In this document: piece after piece, positions 2,223-41,000 of the stretch | How the letters are laid out: every line of letters starts with the position of its first letter | Position numbering within the stretch: position 1 is the stretch's first letter | IMG/VR virus record: IMGVR_UViG_2737471817_000007 | Span: 1-42,368 of that record | Reading direction: 5' to 3' (one strand) | DNA: 42,368 bases | DNA from: a virus | Lineage: Duplodnaviria; Heunggongvirae; Uroviricota; Caudoviricetes | The notes under the pieces: model-generated | Seen by the model: only the letters and a program-made list of their open reading frames with translations | Databases searched by the model: none | Told to the model about the DNA's origin: nothing | Program-made: the position numbers and the translations under genes

Positions 2223-2259
2223 GCCCCTTGCACTGGTTGGCGCCAAGCAAGGGGTTTTT
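2223..2259. terminator. GC-rich hairpin with T-run at the ImmA 3' end (terminator-like, better formed on the plus strand)
   Basis: gccccttgc ... gcaagggg stem followed by ttttt. Confidence 0.35.
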
Positions 2260-2779
2260 ACATTTTGTCTAGCTGATAACGCGCTGCCACTAATGAAACT
2301 CCGCATGCCTCAGCAACATCCTCAGCCGTCATACCTTTTAAAATACTGGCATGCATAGCTGGCACTAATAACTCACCACTAAAACATTTAGCTTGCCATT
2401 CACTACTCTCAAAAGGGCGGATTTTTACCCCTGGGGCAGAACGAGCAAATGCGATGTTCCTGTGCATAAGAAGATGACCCAGTTCATGCGCGGCAGTCAT
2501 CCTATCTCGCCCTACCCCATTCAAAGCGCCTTCGTAAATGTCTTCGCGCAGAATCAATAAATGTTCCTGTGGGTATGTAAGACCATGCGTCTCTCCCATT
2601 TCTTTCATACCACCAATGTGGAACTCAAAATCCGGGATCAACTGAGGCAATGCGAACTCAATTACCTCCATTACAGGGAATTTAAGCCCAGTAATACCAA
2701 ATGCGCTCCGCAGAGATCTGACGATAGAACGTATTGATTCACGATTCTGCGGAGGTACACGATAATCTTGTCCGCTCAA
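2258..2779 (-). CDS. ImmA/IrrE-family zinc metallopeptidase (COG2856-like)
   Basis: 173 aa with HELGH zinc-binding motif; immediately downstream of an XRE HTH gene in the same operon. Confidence 0.7.
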   Translation of the reverse strand: MSGQDYRVPPQNRESIRSIVRSLRSAFGITGLKFPVMEVIEFALPQLIPDFEFHIGGMKEMGETHGLTYPQEHLLILREDIYEGALNGVGRDRMTAAHELGHLLMHRNIAFARSAPGVKIRPFESSEWQAKCFSGELLVPAMHASILKGMTAEDVAEACGVSLVAARYQLDKM

Positions 2780-2787
2780 GCCGCCTC

Positions 2788-3147
2788 CTACTGCTGTTTT
2801 CGATTCAAAATCTGTCGTAAATTACGGAAGTCTTCTTCATTTAACTCATCAAAACTACGAGCGAACGCAATTGCGACTTCACGAGCGTGGCCATTCTTAC
2901 CTGACAAGCTGATCTCTACTGACTGCTGAGAGTCACGAGCTGCACTGATAAGCTTTTCTTTTTGTTTTTCATCCGCATTAAAATAGCTAATGATGCTATC
3001 AAGCACGGGCTTAGTGACCGCCCTTTTACCAGTTTCGATCGCTGAAAGATAAGACGAGGTCATACCCATAGCCTCAGCCATGCTTTTAAGCGTAAGCCCC
3101 AAGTCTATGCGCATTTTTCTTACTGTCTTACCAAACGGCGTTAACAT
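2788..3147 (-). CDS. XRE-family helix-turn-helix transcriptional regulator
   Basis: 119 aa; LTLKSMAEAMGMTSSYLSAIETGKR is a typical XRE HTH. Confidence 0.7.
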   Translation of the reverse strand: MLTPFGKTVRKMRIDLGLTLKSMAEAMGMTSSYLSAIETGKRAVTKPVLDSIISYFNADEKQKEKLISAARDSQQSVEISLSGKNGHAREVAIAFARSFDELNEEDFRNLRQILNRKQQ

Positions 3148-3483: not shown

Positions 3484-3490
3484 TTAATAC

Positions 3491-3602
3491 GTAAAATCGA
3501 TAACGGCTGGAAATCATTCAATACTCGCACTATCGGAAGTTCACCAGCCAGTCGTAGCACGTTCTTGCATACGACGTGGCTACGGGTTTCGAGACCGACC
3601 CG
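3491..3602. repeat. Hairpin element copy B
   Basis: About 90% identical to copy A; hairpin 3553-3585 has a compensatory stem change (C-G to T-A) relative to A. Confidence 0.7.
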
Positions 3603-3680: not shown

Positions 3681-4550
<870 letters not shown>

Positions 4551-4570
4551 GTCTTTAAGTGATAAGCATA

Positions 4571-4628
4571 AACCGCAGCACGATCTTCTTGCATACGACG
4601 TGCTACGGTTTCATTTATCTCCGACCGG
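4571..4628. repeat. Hairpin element copy C (core only), overlapping the 3' end of the invertase gene
   Basis: ccgcagcacg-atcttcttgcatacga-cgtgctacgg; left arm is A-type, right arm is B-type. Confidence 0.6.
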
Positions 4629-5165
4629 AAACTTCTTATACAGTGTCGATATACCAACATCATAGATGATCGCCACCTTCTGGCGAGGAACGCCTGATGC
4701 AATTAATCGTCCGGCCTGCTCCCATTGTTCTGGTGTAAGTTTGGGGCGACGTCCACCAATTCGTCCCTGTGCGCGAGCTGCTTCCAGTCCAGCTTTTGTT
4801 CGTTCAACAATCAGTTCACGCTCCATTTCAGCCAGGGCACCCATCACATGAAAGAAAAAGCGCCCCATTGGGGTACTGGTATCAATTGAATCCGTCAGAC
4901 TACGAAAGTTGATGCCTCGTTCGCGCAACTCCTCCACCAGCACGACAAGATGCCGCATACTGCGCCCCAGTCGGTCCAGTTTCCAGACCACCAGCGTGTC
5001 ACCTGCCGATAATGTCCTGAGCAGCTTTTTCAGTCCTGGTCTGTCGGACTTTGTACCGCTTATCTTGTCTTCAAAAATCAGCTTACATCCTGCACAGTTC
5101 AGCGCATTACGTTGTAGATCGGTATTCTGGTCATTTGTTGATACACGTACATAGCCAATAAGCAT
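4611..5165 (-). CDS. Serine recombinase / DNA invertase (Gin/Hin/Pin/Cin family)
   Basis: MLIGYVRVSTNDQNTDLQ N-terminus typical of resolvase/invertase catalytic domains; adjacent to oppositely oriented tail-fibre cassettes; the ORF track begins 12 codons earlier at 5201. Confidence 0.8.
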   Translation of the reverse strand: MLIGYVRVSTNDQNTDLQRNALNCAGCKLIFEDKISGTKSDRPGLKKLLRTLSAGDTLVVWKLDRLGRSMRHLVVLVEELRERGINFRSLTDSIDTSTPMGRFFFHVMGALAEMERELIVERTKAGLEAARAQGRIGGRRPKLTPEQWEQAGRLIASGVPRQKVAIIYDVGISTLYKKFPVGDK

Positions 5166-5166
5166 G

Positions 5167-5194
5167 TTAAATCCCCCTGGCAAAAGCAGGAATG
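5167..5194. other. Candidate left crossover site of the invertible tail-fibre segment
   Basis: aaATCCccctggcaaaagCAGGAAtg shares a ctggcaaa(a)g core, in inverted orientation, with 6963-6992; both copies encode the peptide LAKA. Confidence 0.4.
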
Positions 5195-5581
5195 ATGCCA
5201 TTTGCTTGTTATTTCTTCATTTTCATAAACATTGGTTTGGGAGAATTATCTCTGGCTGGCACTGCATCGGGTGTCATTGGCCTGAATGGGTATGTAACGA
5301 TCCCGTTAATTATTTCAGGTTCCCGGAGAACACTGATTATTCAGTGGGGGCAGGCGAGATTTGGTGGGTCTGGTGGTGAAGATGCCGGATATCTTAACGA
5401 TTTTCCTTTTGCCTTTCCGTCAGCATGTTATGGAATGATAGTTAGTCATGTGGGGCATACACCTTCAGGCGCAGGAATCTTGTCGGCTTCTGCAATTACA
5501 TCAAATCAGTTCCGCGGTTTTTCAAGCATAGCGACTGCTGCAAACGCTGTATTAGGTCGTTATATCGCTATAGGGGTGTAA
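5192..5581 (+). CDS. Alternative tail-fibre C-terminal (receptor-binding) segment, currently in the silent orientation
   Basis: 129-aa ORF opposite to the expressed fibre; same length as the fibre C-terminal part after the LAKA junction; contains an IIQWG motif of the kind seen in side-tail-fibre C-termini. Confidence 0.45.
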   Translation: MMPFACYFFIFINIGLGELSLAGTASGVIGLNGYVTIPLIISGSRRTLIIQWGQARFGGSGGEDAGYLNDFPFAFPSACYGMIVSHVGHTPSGAGILSASAITSNQFRGFSSIATAANAVLGRYIAIGV

Positions 5582-5582
5582 T

Positions 5583-6019
5583 ATGTTTTATAGTCCATCT
5601 TTAAACATTTTTGTGAATCCTGCACTTAAGGATGATTACATTAATGCAAATTCATGGCCAGATGATGCTCTGGCTGTCAGTGATGATGTTTATAATGAAT
5701 TTGCAATCAATACGCCTCCAGATGACAAAATTCGTGTTGCAGGAAAAAATGGATTACCCACATGGCACTAATACCTCCACCATCACATGAAGAACTTATT
5801 CAACAGGCAGAATCAGAAAGGCAATTATTGCTTAATCAGGCCAACGAATACATGAACAGTAAGCAATGGCCCGGTAAAGCCGCTATTGGTCGTCTGAAAG
5901 GTGATGAACTGGCGCAATATAATTTGTGGCTGGATTATCTGGACGCACTGGAGCTGATCGATACTTCCGGTGCGCCAGATATTGAATGGCCTACGCCTCC
6001 GGCAGTTCAGGCCAGATGA
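5583..6019 (+). CDS. Alternative tail-fibre assembly protein (Tfa'), apparently split into two frames near 5762-5771
   Basis: ORFs 5583-5771 and 5762-6019; the second ends with the Tfa signature DTSGAPDIEWP. Confidence 0.4.
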
Positions 6020-6593
6020 CATCCGGCGCTGTGCTGGTATCTGTTGCCGTCACCGCGTCAATGTAATCCAGCACAGCGTTAAGGCGGGTTGTTTCTGCCT
6101 GCGTCAGTTTACGTCCGGCCTGCAATTTCAGTTGAATCAGACTGATGGAAGCCATTGCTGCATCAATCAGTGACTGGCGCTGTGCTTCTGCCGCTTCTAC
6201 TGCGGCACAGTGTTGTGCCTCAGTGTCGGTCACCCATTTCTCACCATCCCATTTATCATATGGCGTTAACGGGGCGATAGTGGTTGTATTTTCTGGATAG
6301 TCGCCTGGTGCTGTGATTTCTTTGGCATCTCCCGTTTCGGTGTTATAGACGATTTCACCGCGATGGTCTGGCACATATTCCCATGAGTTAAAATCTGCAG
6401 AACGGCAGATTGCATAACCAGCTTTGTATGCGCCTGGAGCATCTAAACAGGAACATGCCGGAATACCGACACCCACAGCAAGATATTCAGTTGATGTGAA
6501 AATATATTCCCGTGTTTCACCATCATAGTTATAAACAGTAATATTTCCTGCCTGAGTGGCGATAAATTCGTTATTTAATACGGCGTAATCCAT
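5991..6593 (-). CDS. Tail-fibre assembly protein (Tfa / Mu U-like)
   Basis: 200 aa; C-terminal DTSTAPDVIWPELP motif; directly downstream of the fibre gene. Confidence 0.7.
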   Translation of the reverse strand: MDYAVLNNEFIATQAGNITVYNYDGETREYIFTSTEYLAVGVGIPACSCLDAPGAYKAGYAICRSADFNSWEYVPDHRGEIVYNTETGDAKEITAPGDYPENTTTIAPLTPYDKWDGEKWVTDTEAQHCAAVEAAEAQRQSLIDAAMASISLIQLKLQAGRKLTQAETTRLNAVLDYIDAVTATDTSTAPDVIWPELPEA

Positions 6594-7393
6594 TATGCAG
6601 CCCTCACGATATATGCAAATGCCAAGTTCCGTGGTCTGGTTTCTTTAATTAAAGAGGAGGCATCAGGTGAACTCACTGATTCAGCACCATTTCTTCCACC
6701 AGTGGTATAAGTAAAAACTCTTTCACTGTTAGACCAGTAATCCACACCAACTGTTTTTGCTGATGAAAAAATGGTTTCATCAGATATAACCTGTTCTATT
6801 CCATACGGGATATTAGTAACTGACCCCACTTTTGTAGGTATTCCATGATTATGAGAAATTACTGCATGCTCTTGATTCGTTAATAAAGTACGACCGCTAT
6901 CCACTCCACGCCCGTCATCCCAGCCACGAATAAACTCACCACGTAAATCAGGCAATTTATTTGTCGGATAAGCCTTTGCCAGTTCCGGGTATTCTTCAGC
7001 AGAAAAAGCGGCACCGTTGCATTTCAGCCAGCCTGTTGGCGGAGTGGCGGAAGGCCACGGAACAGGCACGCCAACGGGTAATGCTGAACCTTCTCCCAAA
7101 CCAAGGTTTTCGAGAGCCGTTTTCACCGTGCCATCCGATTTGATATCGCCAAACGGATTCTTGCGGCTTAACAGCAGCGCACGAAGCGCTGTAAGCAGCT
7201 GGTCATGCCGCCCCTTCTCCAGGCTGGCACCGGATGCCTCCACAACACTGCAAAGTTCCTCCTGCAACATGTCAAAGTAGTCATCATCCAGATCGGTGGC
7301 AGGTGTGCCGGTCTGGGGGTTACCACGGGTAAAACCGTTCTTACCCGCGCCGAACTTATCCTTCTGCGCGGTTTTCGTATCTATACGATGCAT
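6593..7393 (-). CDS. Tail fibre protein (constant N-terminal part plus currently expressed variable C-terminus)
   Basis: 266 aa with the conserved fibre motif [22 protein letters not shown]. Confidence 0.7.
6963..6992. other. Candidate right crossover site inside the tail-fibre gene
   Basis: Inverted partial copy of the 5167-5194 core at the LAKA codons. Confidence 0.35.
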
Positions 7394-7396
7394 GGA

Positions 7397-7981
7397 TTAC
7401 TCCGGATATTTAAAAATTACGTAGGTATGCGACGGGCAGAGTTTGTTAAGCACACACTCGATAACGGTGTCGCCCCATATACGCAGCGCGGAATCACAGG
7501 GATCGCCACATGTCATCCAGGTGGTGTTGGTGGCGGCTGGCATGTTGACCTGCCAGTAATACCGCCATTCCGGCGCATTCACCGCGTCAGTACAGGCCGA
7601 TGAGCAGGTGAACGTGCTTTTGTCGTATCGCGTGATGGTAGCGTCTGGTCTGCCCAGGGCAGCAAGCTGTGCAAGATAAAAATCCTCGTTGATGCCGCCC
7701 GCCAGGTTAACCTTCGCATCCAGCCGTTGCTGACGCTGGCGAAGGGTCTGTGTCCCTGCGGGAATACATTCATCCGGCAGACCGCACAGACGCTCCCAGC
7801 GGTTTATCAGTTCAGTGGTGGTGCGCGGATCCAGCTCCCGCATCAGGGCATCCGCACGCTGATGAACGCGGGTTAATGACGGTGCCGCACCGGCAATCGC
7901 CGGATCGCTGGCTGACCACGCCGGACCGGGGGGCAACAGTGCTGACAACAGACGGATGTAATCATCGTTTGTCACGTCCAT
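7397..7981 (-). CDS. Baseplate/tail protein, Mu gp48-like (DUF2313/YmfQ-like)
   Basis: 194 aa; position and sequence character match Mu-type baseplate modules. Confidence 0.55.
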
Positions 7982-9030
7982 GAAATCGTCCCCAGTACCG
8001 CCAGTTCATTTTTTGCAATGGAGATATTGTCTGCCGGTGCAAGCAACTGATGGCTGTATTCCCCGTTCGCACCGGAAATCGCCTCACTGATACGCGATAC
8101 CTTCAGTTCTCCCTGCGGATAACCATCACGCAGCAGGAACGAACGCAACTCCGCGGTGATGGCAGCCCGTATTTCCGGTGTGTCCGGCGTCACACGGATA
8201 TGAAAATCCACCGTATGTGCCACCGGCCTGAACACATACAAATCAGAGCCTGCCACCGGGGCCAGTGGCTCGATATGTTGTCTTGCCGCCGTTTCCGTTG
8301 ATTCTTCCGGAATGGGATTAATCAGGTCACTGCTGGCAATCATCACACCGACAGTTCCCGTTCCCATCCAGTGACGGTATGTCCATGCGCGGGTAATGCC
8401 GGGCACTTCTTTAGCCCAGACAACATAGTCCCCGTCAGCCCCGCCCTGCGGCGTCCAGTAATACCGCTCAATGACGCGGGCGCGCCACGTTTCCAGCTCT
8501 TCAGTATCAAATCCGCCTGTCAGGGTGTCAGCCACACCGGAAGACGGCAGACCATTCACCGGCGTGACCAGGATTAATGCCGTACCGTCGTCAGCATTAC
8601 CGACCGCACCTGCACTTGAGCAGGCGATCGGCACGCGCAGGACACCACCGGAGCTGGTTGCATCGTCAGTTGTCGTGTACTGCACCAGGTCATCGCGCTG
8701 AATAACACTCCCGGCGGTCACCTTCAGGCCATCGCTGACACCTTCCCAGCGCATATACCCACTGGCAACCGTGGCTCCCTTGCGCGGACACCGTTTCATC
8801 GCAGCATGTCGCGCCAGCCAGGACTCATCGCACAGGTCAGGCAGCATGTTCATTGCCAGATAATCGATGTAACCGTAAACCGTATGCAGCGCCGCCGCAT
8901 ACACCTTTGCCCGCACGTCTTCATCCATGCGCCGGAGCGTGTCGCTGACGTCCAGCCTGGCGAATAAATCGTTACGGAGCATACTAATATTTTCTGCCAG
9001 CGTCGGGCGCTGAAATTCACTGTCCGCCAT
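7972..9030 (-). CDS. Baseplate J-like protein (Mu gp47-like)
   Basis: 352 aa in conserved Mu-type order. Confidence 0.65.
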
Positions 9031-9445
9031 GCGTTATCGCACTCCACAGATCATCAAAAGAAATCATTACCGGTCCGTCACGACGCCAGAGGGTGATACT
9101 GTTACCCAGTTCATTAATCCCGGTGCGGCGGATATCCAGATCAATACGGGACACCACGCCGTCATCAATCATCCATTGCAGGCATTCGCGGATATACCCC
9201 CTTACCGTCTGCACCAGCTGATTGGTCAGTTTGCTGCGCTGAAGCAGCCACAGTCGGGAGCCGTAACGGTCATTCTGTACCGCAGGCCAGGTATCCCCCC
9301 ACCATCCCATCGGGACGTCGGCGTTGTCATCAGGCTCCGCCCGCCGCCAGGTAAACAGGGAAATCACCACGGCGCGGGTCAGCGGATCCAGCGGTGCGCT
9401 GGCGCAGGTGCGTTTACCGTTCACCGTCAGCCACAGTTCCATCAT
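9017..9445 (-). CDS. Baseplate wedge protein (Mu gp46-like)
   Basis: 142 aa; overlaps neighbours as in tail operons. Confidence 0.55.
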   Translation of the reverse strand: MMELWLTVNGKRTCASAPLDPLTRAVVISLFTWRRAEPDDNADVPMGWWGDTWPAVQNDRYGSRLWLLQRSKLTNQLVQTVRGYIRECLQWMIDDGVVSRIDLDIRRTGINELGNSITLWRRDGPVMISFDDLWSAITHGGQ

Positions 9446-9990
9446 GCCTCCATCGCTTTATCAGGTTTGTCGGTGTTACTGCCCTGACCGTTCTCTCTGT
9501 GACGATGCCCGTTATAGGCAAGCCGCATCGCTGACATGGTGGTGCCGCCGGAGTCGCACAGGTCTTTCACCTGTCCTGTCACTTCCAGGTCCATTTCAAA
9601 ACGTGCTTCAGGTGCATTGCGAAACGTGATCGTTTTACCTGCACCGTCCACCACGATCCCCTCCCGGGTCAGCATCACGGACTGCCCCTGATCGTCATAG
9701 ACAGCCACCTCACCCGTCTGCAGCCCTTTCAGGCGGTAGCGCCGGTCCGACACCGTAACAACCACCGCATGAGAACGGTCGCCATCCGGAAACAACACCA
9801 CCGCTTCCGCACCGCTGTTTGCCCTTGCGGTAAAACCGTAGGGTTCAAGATGCTCAACCCCGGCTTTGGGTTCACCGGCAATCAGGGACACATCCACGGT
9901 CTGACATTTCGTGGCGGCACTGATGCTTTTCACCACGGCCCGCCCAATCAGGCCGAGGAGTTGTCGCTGCATGGCTTCAATCGTCCTCAT
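9442..9990 (-). CDS. Baseplate assembly/spike protein (gpV / Mu gp45-like)
   Basis: 182 aa in conserved position. Confidence 0.55.
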   Translation of the reverse strand: MRTIEAMQRQLLGLIGRAVVKSISAATKCQTVDVSLIAGEPKAGVEHLEPYGFTARANSGAEAVVLFPDGDRSHAVVVTVSDRRYRLKGLQTGEVAVYDDQGQSVMLTREGIVVDGAGKTITFRNAPEARFEMDLEVTGQVKDLCDSGGTTMSAMRLAYNGHRHRENGQGSNTDKPDKAMEA

Positions 9991-11069
9991 CAGAACGGAT
10001 CCTCCTGTACTCTGGCTTTTTTCTTTTTCCGCGCGCCGGGGGCTTCGGGTTCAGGCAGATAAGCATCAGGTGGGCCGACACGGATTTCCGTCAGGGTGCC
10101 GTTCTGGTCCTGAGTAAACGTGACTTCCGAGACAAGCAGTTCGGTATTGTCGAAACCACAGACCGGATCGAAGACAATCACCCGCTGGTTGGGCTGCCAC
10201 AGCGTACCGTTACCCTGTCGCCAGCCCTGCACCACATAGGTGGTTTCATCCGTCCGCGCCGCCCGTTGTCGGGCTTCAAAGTCAGCACGCGCAATACAGC
10301 CTGCCCCCGTGGCCTGCCCTGTCTGCCTGATATACATCGGACGGTAACGGGCAATAAATGCGTCCTCTGTGCGGGCCCGCAGCGCGGTGGTGGTGGCCTC
10401 ACCGAAATCATCGTCGTTTCCGGCACGCTGCCCCGCCACCTGGTAAACTGAAAACCGCTCCCGGATACTCTTCTCCGTATCGCAGGAAAGGATGTTTTCC
10501 CCAAGTACCAGCGCGGTATGTGCCCGCGTTGAGCCAATACCGCCAATCACCAGCCTGCCGTGCGGGTCGTCGTAAGCCAGTACCTGCTGCTGACCGAGTA
10601 TTTTGTTGATCACCTCAATCACCGTTTCGCCGTGATCAGGCTGGACGTCAGGAATAACACCCGACGGCGCACCGTTGTTCACCACCTCAATGCCGAAAGG
10701 CGCAGCAAGCGCCTGCGCAATCTGTACCAGCGATCGTCCGTTAAACTGTGTCGGTTCGGCTGCACAGTCAATCAGGTCAGCGGTCAGACTGCGTCCGGCA
10801 ATACCGGTGCTGACCGAACGGGCATCGTAATGAACGGGCGTCGCCTCCACCCAGCCGGTGATCACCAGCTCATCACCAATCAGCACTTCCACTTTTGAAC
10901 CGTTTTTAATGCGCGGCTGAAGCGTGGTGATACCCTCATCTCCCGGCCACTGGCGAGTGATCTCCACACTGAAATCCCGCGCCAGCCGTTCAATACCGGC
11001 ACCGATGCGCACCGATGTCCAGCCATTCCACTCCCGGCCATTTACCCGTAGCGTGACATTGTCGTTCAT
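9990..11069 (-). CDS. Baseplate hub protein (Mu gp44 / P2 gpD-like)
   Basis: 359 aa in conserved position. Confidence 0.55.
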   Translation of the reverse strand: MNDNVTLRVNGREWNGWTSVRIGAGIERLARDFSVEITRQWPGDEGITTLQPRIKNGSKVEVLIGDELVITGWVEATPVHYDARSVSTGIAGRSLTADLIDCAAEPTQFNGRSLVQIAQALAAPFGIEVVNNGAPSGVIPDVQPDHGETVIEVINKILGQQQVLAYDDPHGRLVIGGIGSTRAHTALVLGENILSCDTEKSIRERFSVYQVAGQRAGNDDDFGEATTTALRARTEDAFIARYRPMYIRQTGQATGAGCIARADFEARQRAARTDETTYVVQGWRQGNGTLWQPNQRVIVFDPVCGFDNTELLVSEVTFTQDQNGTLTEIRVGPPDAYLPEPEAPGARKKKKARVQEDPF

Positions 11070-39520: not shown

Positions 39521-39870
39521 TGGAGCCATACAGCCTCACACTCGATGAGGCCTGTCATTTTCTCAAGATATCCAGACCGACTGCCATTAACTGGATACGC
39601 ACAGGGCGTCTTCAGGCAACACGCAAAGATCCCACTAAGAATAAATCTCCTTACCTCACAACACGACAAGCCTGCATTGCGGCTCTTCAGTCTCCGCTGC
39701 ATACTGTCCAGGTGAGCGCGGGTGATGGCATAACAGAGGAAAGAAAATGTCACTCTTCCGCAGAGGTGAAATATGGTACGCCAGTTTCACATTGCCGAAC
39801 GGTAAAAGATTTAAACAGTCTCTTGGAACAAAGGACAAAAGGCAGGCGACAGAACTCCATGACAAGCTAA
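39520..39870 (+). CDS. xis: Excisionase (AlpA/MerR-like HTH)
   Basis: [34 protein letters not shown] immediately upstream of and overlapping int. Confidence 0.55.
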
Positions 39871-40910
39871 AGGCTGAAGCATGGCGGGTCAGCAAACTTG
39901 GTGAAATACCTGATATAACGTTCGAGGAAGCGTGTGTCAGGTGGCTTGAAGAGAAAGCACATAAAAAATCACTGGACGATGACAAAAGCCGGATCGGATT
40001 CTGGCTTCAACATTTCGCAGGAATGCAACTAAGAGACATTACTGAATCAAAAATTTATTCAGCAATGCAGAAAATGACGAACCGGCGTCATGAGGAAAAC
40101 TGGAAACTCAGGGCAGAAGCATGCAGAAAAAAAGGGAAACCTGTTCCAGAATACACGCCAAAACCAGCGTCCGTTGCAACGAAGGCTACGCATCTTTCAT
40201 TTATAAAGGCCCTACTAAGAGCCGCAGAGCGTGAATGGAAAATGCTGGATAAGGCACCAATTATTAAAGTGCCTCAACCAAAGAATAAACGGATCCGCTG
40301 GCTGGAGCCCCATGAAGCACAAAGGCTGATTGATGAATGTCCGGAGCCATTAAAGTCTGTTGTTGAATTTGCACTGGCAACAGGCTTAAGACGCTCGAAC
40401 ATCATCAACCTTGAATGGCAACAAATAGATATGCAGCGCCGGGTGGCATGGATAAACCCGGAAGAGAGTAAATCAAACCGCGCAATTGGCGTTGCGCTGA
40501 ATGATACTGCATGTCGCGTTTTGAAAAAACAAATCGGGAATCATCACCGTTGGGTATTTGTGTACAAGGAAAGCTGTACCAAACCAGACGGAACGAAAGC
40601 GCCAACAGTAAGGAAGATGCGGTATGACGCAAACACAGCCTGGAAAGCGGCGCTGAGACGGGCTGGTATTGATGATTTCAGATTTCACGACTTGAGACAC
40701 ACCTGGGCAAGTTGGCTGGTTCAAGCCGGAGTCCCGTTGTCAGTGTTACAGGAAATGGGAGGCTGGGAGTCTATCGAAATGGTTCGTCGATATGCTCACC
40801 TTGCACCTAATCACCTTACCGAACACGCACGGCAAATAGACTCGATCCTGAACCCATCGGTCCCAAATTCGTCCCAGTCAAAAAATAAGGAAGGTACTAA
40901 TGATGTGTAA
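39747..40910 (+). CDS. int: Tyrosine integrase
   Basis: 387 aa; C-terminal HDLRHT ... VRRYAHL catalytic region; ends 14 bp from the tRNA. Confidence 0.85.
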
Positions 40911-40969
40911 CTTATTGATTTAAATGGTGCCGATAATAGGAGTCGAACCTACGACCTTCGCATTACGAA
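40903..40969. repeat. attR: phage/tRNA junction copy of the attachment repeat
   Basis: Matches 104-170; lies inside the tRNA 3' half. Confidence 0.75.
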
Positions 40970-41000
40970 TGCGCTGCTCTACCAACTGAGCTATATCGGC
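40925..41000 (-). tRNA. thrW: tRNA-Thr (anticodon CGU)
   Basis: Reverse complement reads GCCGATATAGCTCAGTTGGTAGAGCAGCGCATTCGTAATGCGAAGGTCGTAGGTTCGACTCCTATTATCGGCACCA: cloverleaf with CGT anticodon and CCA end. Confidence 0.85.

Follow-up and report, generated by a model that had tools for sequence, protein, structure and literature searches.

The inversion switch formed by Pin and the P segment has been known since 1985. In Escherichia coli K-12, the P segment of e14, which is 1,797 base pairs (bp) long, inverts between TTGGTTTGGGAGAAGG and CCTTCTCCCAAACCAA in a reaction driven by PinE, PinQ, and PinR (PMC12529663), and both P-segment states coexist within clonal K-12 cultures (PMC4272514). 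A published table of Din-family sites gives the pixL crossover site as TTCTCCCAAACC AA GGTTTTCGAGAG and pixR as TTCTCCCAAACC AA CGTTTATGAAAA (PMC3241671), and the chimeric StfE2 of e14 is a product that, once the P segment has inverted, reportedly blocks the adsorption of T2 (2025, PMC12529663). The present analysis concerns a comparable region within IMG/VR virus record IMGVR_UViG_2737471817_000007, a sequence assigned to the Caudoviricetes whose 42,368 nucleotides (nt) are referred to below as the window.

This region is very probably a Din-family (Gin/Hin/Cin/Pin) inversion switch of the e14 P-segment type, lying at the tail-fibre end of an SfV-like prophage at thrW. What is observed here is the gene content, the identity of the crossover sites, the in-frame product of inversion, and the occurrence of both orientations in close relatives. 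The initial annotation of the window, which was made from the letters and open reading frames (ORFs) without database searches, had proposed a Gin/Pin-type invertible tail-fibre segment, and this proposal held: the invertase is 95% identical to PinE, the sites are published pix sites, and relatives are found in both orientations. The layout that it described, a serine invertase beside two opposed sets of fibre C-terminus and assembly genes, is likewise borne out by the ORF map and by domain searches. A constant fibre N-terminus (Sc) lies outside the segment, and within the segment are two opposed, in-frame C-termini (Sv, expressed, and Sv', silent), each with its own assembly gene; the silent assembly gene, tfa', is frameshifted. 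Since this is a textbook P-segment switch and pinE is routinely annotated by the Prokaryotic Genome Annotation Pipeline (PGAP) in the related E. coli genomes examined, the system is already known, and the value of the analysis lies mainly in correct annotation, with the true crossover sites and both fibre products defined for this prophage.

Crossover sites

Alignment to consensus sites, a check suggested with the initial annotation, recovers two 26-bp imperfect dyads (Table 1) that are inverted relative to each other, have identical AA cores, and fit TTC---AAAC- -A -GTTT---GAA, the dix consensus. Comparison with the published table (PMC3241671) identifies the site within the fibre gene as pixL, with all 26 positions matching, and the site near the invertase gene as a pixR-like site with 25 of the 26. 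On the plus strand the latter reads TTTTCATAAACA TT GGTTTGGGAGAA. The points of exchange are the central dinucleotides, at 5232/5233 and 7103/7104. The pixL sequence is identical in K-12 and in four related E. coli loci.

The top high-identity inverted repeat of the region pairs 5227-5245 with 7091-7109 (19 nt, 95%); the left pix site forms one arm of this repeat, and the equivalent site delimits a natural inversion in the E. coli pair 7409/7784. A search of the 42-kb window for the string TTCTCCCAAACCAA, with up to two mismatches permitted, gives exactly two copies, which are oppositely oriented. The exact inverted repeat is 14 nt long, a length that is unexceptional given that shuffled sequences average about 12 nt and reach up to 18, and for this reason the case for the sites rests on their identity to the published pix sequences together with the end-points of natural inversion.

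The initial annotation had placed the crossovers elsewhere, at 5167-5194 and 6963-6992, where it saw a shared ctggcaaa(a)g core with both copies encoding LAKA, so that the reading frame would be kept and about 128 C-terminal residues exchanged. The inverted strings do exist, at 5177-5186 and 6974-6983, and each can be read as LAKA in frame, but they are not sites. Because inverted 8-mers and 9-mers are abundant in the 3.3-kb region (135 and 45 exact pairs, respectively, compared with about 92 and about 25 in mononucleotide shuffles), the match is at chance level and uninformative. In addition, the strings show neither dyad symmetry nor any resemblance to the dix consensus; the left string lies within the leader and ribosome-binding (Shine-Dalgarno) region of the invertase gene, pin, and exchange at the right string would cut the Collar domain of the fibre, in which LAKA is residues 138-141. 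Natural inversions terminate at the pix sites, and in the natural flipped fibre ENLGLGE is joined to LSLAG, not LAKA to GMMPF. A crossover at the LAKA strings has practically no chance of being correct, and the model is refuted by the natural end-points and by the junction of the natural flipped fibre.

Both orientations in natural isolates

A set of 5,426 complete E. coli genomes was queried with the window region and with its in-silico flip. At a coverage of at least 80% and an identity of about 93-95%, 13 genomes have the window orientation and 8 are flipped; five complete genomes match the flipped query at 91-93% coverage and about 95% identity. Both types of junction are common: with 300-nt queries specific to each, the arrangement of the window, in which the Collar cassette adjoins the constant part, is present in 517 genomes, and the flipped arrangement, with this cassette on the pin side, in 913. 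The clearest pair consists of O157:H7 strain 7409 and strain 7784 (serotype unstated), which are identical over 6,322 bp save for an exact 1,863-bp inversion that ends inside ...TTGGTTTGGGAGAAG and CTTCTCCCAAACCAA..., the inner half-sites. In the flipped E. coli strain 998, the annotated fibre has 212 residues, is 99% identical to the flipped product predicted from the window, and has exactly the predicted junction. The exact T-variant of the left site (see below) is also found in an IMG/VR contig in which the Collar cassette lies beside pin, the state opposite to that of the window; scans for this exact variant give three contigs in total, which are non-isogenic with the window.

Fibre products and the silent assembly gene

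The expressed fibre gene (7393-6593, minus strand) encodes 266 residues, with the Collar domain at residues 108-155. Flipping the segment in silico at the pix cores yields an in-frame fibre of 212 residues, in which ...ALENLGLGE is followed by LSLAGTASG... and the end is gp53-like. The in-frame swap of a fibre C-terminus and its assembly protein, which had been proposed from the sequence, is thus obtained at the pix sites, with other boundaries: the first approximately 97 fibre codons are retained on inversion, the site itself supplies the junction codons N-L-G-L-G-E, and the exchange affects about 169 residues at the C-terminus in the present form against 115 after flipping. From residue 102 onward the two sequences diverge, over 165 residues (present) and 111 (flipped), in place of the roughly 128 suggested earlier. 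Together with its leader, Sv' makes up a 129-residue ORF (5192-5581, plus strand) that is the counterpart of the K-12 'StfE2'.

DNA from 5770 to 7110, which includes the expressed tip, its assembly gene, and part of tfa', has about 89-91% identity to cassettes from Escherichia (pro483 and P2 variants), Klebsiella, and Citrobacter phages of the P2-like type. This similarity suggests that fibre cassettes have moved horizontally between phage types.

The two halves of tfa' cover positions 6-53 and 55-130 of the Caudo_TAP profile. What separates them is a deletion of 1 nt from a run of G at 5764-5765: the window reads GG, and three E. coli relatives read GGG (ACATGGCACT in the window versus ACATGGGCACT in the relatives); the tfa' genes of these relatives are intact and 438-444 nt long. 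In the window, tfa' is either a pseudogene or the product of a homopolymer sequencing error. Because of the frameshift, the alternative state of the switch may be impaired, and a possible defect in one of the two states is predicted: should the deletion be genuine, particles made in the flipped orientation may be without properly assembled fibres.

This raises the question of whether the switch is decaying or one-sided, with functional fibres made from the Collar orientation alone and with a flip leading to fibre-defective particles or to drift toward an e14-like fossil. The deletion, set against three intact relatives, and the splitting of the Caudo_TAP match into two ORFs would agree with such a state, as would e14, a degraded relative in which stfE is annotated as a pseudogene in K-12. 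However, the deletion could be a sequencing error in the homopolymer, and no damage is apparent in Pin, in either site, in Sv', or elsewhere in the prophage. Furthermore, the 85-residue ORF of tfa' retains the conserved chaperone core and its own ATG, and help from the other Tfa is conceivable, as the C-terminal parts of the two share about 36% identity. A one-sided switch is a possibility, though a somewhat doubtful one.

Table 1. Positions of the switch components and of neighbouring features in the window
Feature	Positions	Strand	Basis or remarks
pixL crossover site, 26 bp, TTCTCCCAAACC AA GGTTTTCGAGAG, within fibre gene (codons ..ALENLGLGE..)	7091-7116	+	26/26 to published pixL
pixR-like crossover site, 26 bp, minus-strand reading TTCTCCCAAACC AA TGTTTATGAAAA	5220-5245	-	25/26 to published pixR
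Invertible segment, P-segment type, 1,871 bp	5233-7103	.	Bounded by both core dinucleotides
Constant fibre N-terminus (Sc), about 97 residues, final gene segment of Mu-like baseplate operon	7104-7393	-	97% to K-12 StfP
Expressed variable fibre C-terminus (Sv), phage tail Collar domain	6593-7103	-	Collar E=2e-15
Expressed tail-fibre assembly gene (tfaE-like), 200 residues	5991-6593	-	Caudo_TAP E=2.5e-32; 89% to K-12 TfaE
Silent fibre C-terminus (Sv'), gp53-like domain	5234-5581	+	Pfam Gp53-like_C E=1e-12
Silent assembly gene (tfa'), split into ORFs of 62 and 85 residues	5583-6019	+	Caudo_TAP match in both halves
pin, serine DNA invertase, 184 residues	4611-5165	-	Resolvase and HTH_7 domains; alignment with PinE/Gin/Cin
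Putative Fis recombinational enhancer, nt 19-90 of pin (gene 5' end)	5076-5147	-	Homology to P1 cin enhancer
Hairpin just 3' of pin stop, then UUUAUGCUUAU	4567-4609	-	Fold -22.5 kcal/mol, z=-4.0
Gp48/YmfQ-like gene	7397-7981	-	
Baseplate J/Gp47-like gene	7972-9030	-	
Gp46-like baseplate gene	9017-9445	-	
Gp45-like baseplate gene	9442-9990	-	
Gp44/P-like baseplate gene	9990-11069	-	

The invertase gene and its 5' end

The pin gene is intact, and profile searches of its product give Pfam Resolvase (E=1e-51) and HTH_7 (E=4e-13). Pin is thus a small serine recombinase of the Din family, with a catalytic N-terminal domain and a C-terminal helix-turn-helix (HTH). Besides its identity to K-12 PinE it shares 81% with Cin of P1 and 79% with Gin of Mu, and alignment of the four proteins shows that the catalytic Ser9, as well as Arg7, Asp64, Arg65, and Arg68, is invariant. 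The start at 5165, MLIGYVRVS, is the one conserved with PinE, Gin, and Cin; the start at 5201 in the ORF list is an upstream in-frame ATG.

In the P1 record, nt 19-90 of cin are annotated as 'enhancer of Cin-mediated C-segment inversion'. The same stretch of pin is identical at 67 of 72 positions to K-12 pinE (93%) and at 55 of 72 to both cin and gin (76%). A scan of the pin 5' end with the Fis consensus GNNYRNNWNNYRNNC, which is too degenerate to reveal two specific sites, gives a single 7/7 match, which lies at nt 71-85 and is shared by pin, pinE, gin, and cin, together with a weak match 49 bp upstream. The conserved stretch would be compatible with a Fis enhancer, a function suggested by these homologies.

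Proposed mechanism of inversion

In the proposed mechanism, Pin dimers would bind the inverted 26-bp pix sites at 5220-5245 and 7091-7116, and the pix-bound Pin would synapse with the enhancer, itself bound by Fis, at the 5' end of pin to form an invertasome. Both pix sites would be cut at the AA/TT core, and 180-degree subunit rotation followed by religation would invert 5233-7103. Late minus-strand transcription of the baseplate operon would then run through Sc into the Sv that happens to face it and on into the chaperone gene belonging to that Sv. In the present state this would give Sc with the Collar-domain C-terminus and then the tfaE-like chaperone gene; in the flipped state, Sc would continue in frame from ...ALENLGLGE into LSLAG... 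and the gp53-like C-terminus, followed by the second chaperone gene. The off-facing pair of cassettes, being without an upstream start, would be silent. As a result, virions of the two states would carry different receptor-binding tips. The dependence on Fis and an enhancer is presumed from homology to Hin and Gin. That the states would differ in host range is suggested both by homology and by the unrelated nature of the two receptor-binding domains, Collar and gp53-like.

Several points weigh against assigning the region to this class of switch. The left site, presumed to be active, deviates from pixR at position 15, where it has T for C, a position that the dix consensus leaves free. Inversion of the window's own copy is inferred rather than observed. 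The genome-wide junction counts pool different prophages (e14 and SfV-like). A simple scan for a sigma-70-like promoter of pin found none, total hits being fewer than expected from shuffles. The identity of the enhancer stretch is 0.76, compared with 0.69-0.74 outside it, and protein-coding constraint confounds this conservation; because the rest of the gene is nearly as conserved and the Fis scan is uninformative, conservation of the stretch does not serve as independent evidence. Finally, the silent chaperone gene is frameshifted, as described above.

Prophage context and neighbouring genes

A tRNA-Thr(CGT) at 40925-41000 has its 3' part duplicated in a 40-bp direct repeat, whose copies (132-171 and 40931-40970) delimit the prophage. 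Next to this tRNA gene are a tyrosine integrase gene (39747-40910) and a proA with 100% identity to that of E. coli. At about 97% identity, the structural genes match those of the Shigella serotype-converting phages SfII, SfI, SfIV, and SfV and of Escherichia phage vB_EcoM-689R6. The host element is apparently a complete SfV-like myovirus prophage of about 40.8 kb, located at thrW in E. coli, and from the att repeats, the tRNA-Thr, the integrase, and the placement of the structural genes, the switch lies at the prophage end nearest attR. Among the ORFs checked at that end, where pin and defence-type genes are situated, no gtr-like gene is present.

Convergent with pin is a gene for a LEM-3-like GIY-YIG protein (3777-4550, plus strand), a full-length match to PADLOC's model for PD-T4-3, an anti-phage system (E=2e-140), and the hairpin at 4567-4609 is a probable terminator between the two genes. 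Farther to the left are an ImmA/IrrE metallopeptidase gene (2258-2779, minus strand) and an XRE-HTH gene (2788-3147, minus strand), which together resemble a CapP/CapH pair. CapP and CapH are DNA-damage-responsive regulators of defence operons. Near this pair is an ORF of 262 residues (673-1461) with a weak HNH_5 match alone.

A direct repeat of 103 nt, with copies 91% identical at 1714-1816 and 3486-3588 and a partial copy at 4565-4610, is found downstream of remnants of DinI-like genes. A strong hairpin, AACCGCAGCACG..TTCTTGCATACGACGTGGCTGCGGTTT, forms the core of this repeat, and copies of it lie at approximately 1780-1815 and 3552-3587, with a third between the convergent PD-T4-3 and pin genes. 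The repeated hairpin looks like a shared terminator or a cassette-boundary element of the moron region. An Rfam scan matched the tRNA alone, with no family for the repeat hairpin.

A possible role in phage defence

Given the report on StfE2, a different main role can be considered, in which the switch serves chiefly as a phage-defence toggle of the lysogen and ORF 5192-5581 (MMPFACYFFIFINIGLGE plus the gp53-like domain) is a free adsorption-blocking fragment. This ORF shares the architecture of K-12 StfE2, the leader peptide being the same and the C-terminal domain likewise gp53-like; the state of the window corresponds to the 'inverted' (T2-resistant) state of PMC12529663; and the neighbouring PD-T4-3 gene and CapH/CapP-like pair form a defence-type island. 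However, the gp53-like domain is just 36% identical to that of K-12, the promoter scan is negative, and the StfE2 mechanism comes from a single recent study and docking models. Because the prophage looks complete, a role in the host range of the virion is more economical, and a switch devoted mainly to defence seems unlikely. A second function, in which the free product of ORF 5192-5581 would block unrelated phages and Pin would toggle superinfection defence alongside or instead of host range, is quite unlikely.

Comparison with known systems

Among the closest known counterparts of the element are SfV-like prophages at thrW in other E. coli strains (such as 7409, 7784, PapM-32-1, and 998), which have the same GIY-YIG, pinE, segment, ymfQ, and baseplate J genes at about 94-95% identity. 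Their Sv' allele is of the same type, and the flipped fibre of strain 998 is 99% identical. They differ in the distal portion of the expressed Collar-type tip (73.5% overall), in having an intact tfa', and in being without the extra ImmA/XRE and DinI-like cassettes at the left.

The Mu G segment has the same plan, with Sc outside, Sv-U and U'-Sv' inside, and the invertase just outside beside one site; it also shares the gp44-48-like baseplate genes upstream, an invertase (Gin) that is 79% identical, and 26-bp dyad sites. The Mu segment measures about 3.06 kb, its core is GA, and its Sc has about 170 residues, compared with 1.87 kb, an AA core, and about 97 residues here, and the fibre cassettes of the window (Collar and gp53-like) are short types unrelated to those of Mu. 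The P1 C segment shares Cin (81%), the AA core, and the stretch, annotated in P1 as the enhancer, that falls within nt 1-90 of cin and has a conserved homologue here; it is longer, at 4.26 kb, its fibres are far longer, and cin is on the opposite side relative to Sc.

The gene order of the e14 P segment (stfP-tfaP-tfaE-stfE-pinE) is identical to that of the window. Identities to K-12 e14 are 95% for Pin, 97% for fibre residues 1-105 versus StfP, 98% for YmfQ, and 89% for the expressed Tfa versus TfaE; pixL is the same, pixR matches at 25 of 26 positions, and the segment measures 1,797 bp in e14 and 1,871 bp in the window. The variable tips, however, are different alleles, the Collar-type tip being 54% identical to StfE and the gp53-like tip 36% identical to the StfP C-terminus, and the C-terminal part of tfa' (the 85-residue ORF) is 58% identical to K-12 TfaP. 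Relative to the MG1655 reference the segment of the window is reversed, its tfa' is frameshifted, and the neighbour of pin is the PD-T4-3 GIY-YIG gene, whereas in e14 it is mcrA. Finally, e14 is a remnant at icd, whereas the window holds an apparently complete SfV-like prophage at thrW, so that the e14-type switch is seen here in what is presumably its original setting, an intact SfV-like myovirus. Given the report that e14 inversion protects against T2, a functional prophage with other cassette alleles could serve as a comparison strain. As it neither resides at icd nor carries the StfE/StfP alleles, the window element is an ortholog of the e14 P segment in a different prophage and not e14 itself, and e14 would be a decayed relative of the SfV-like phage type.

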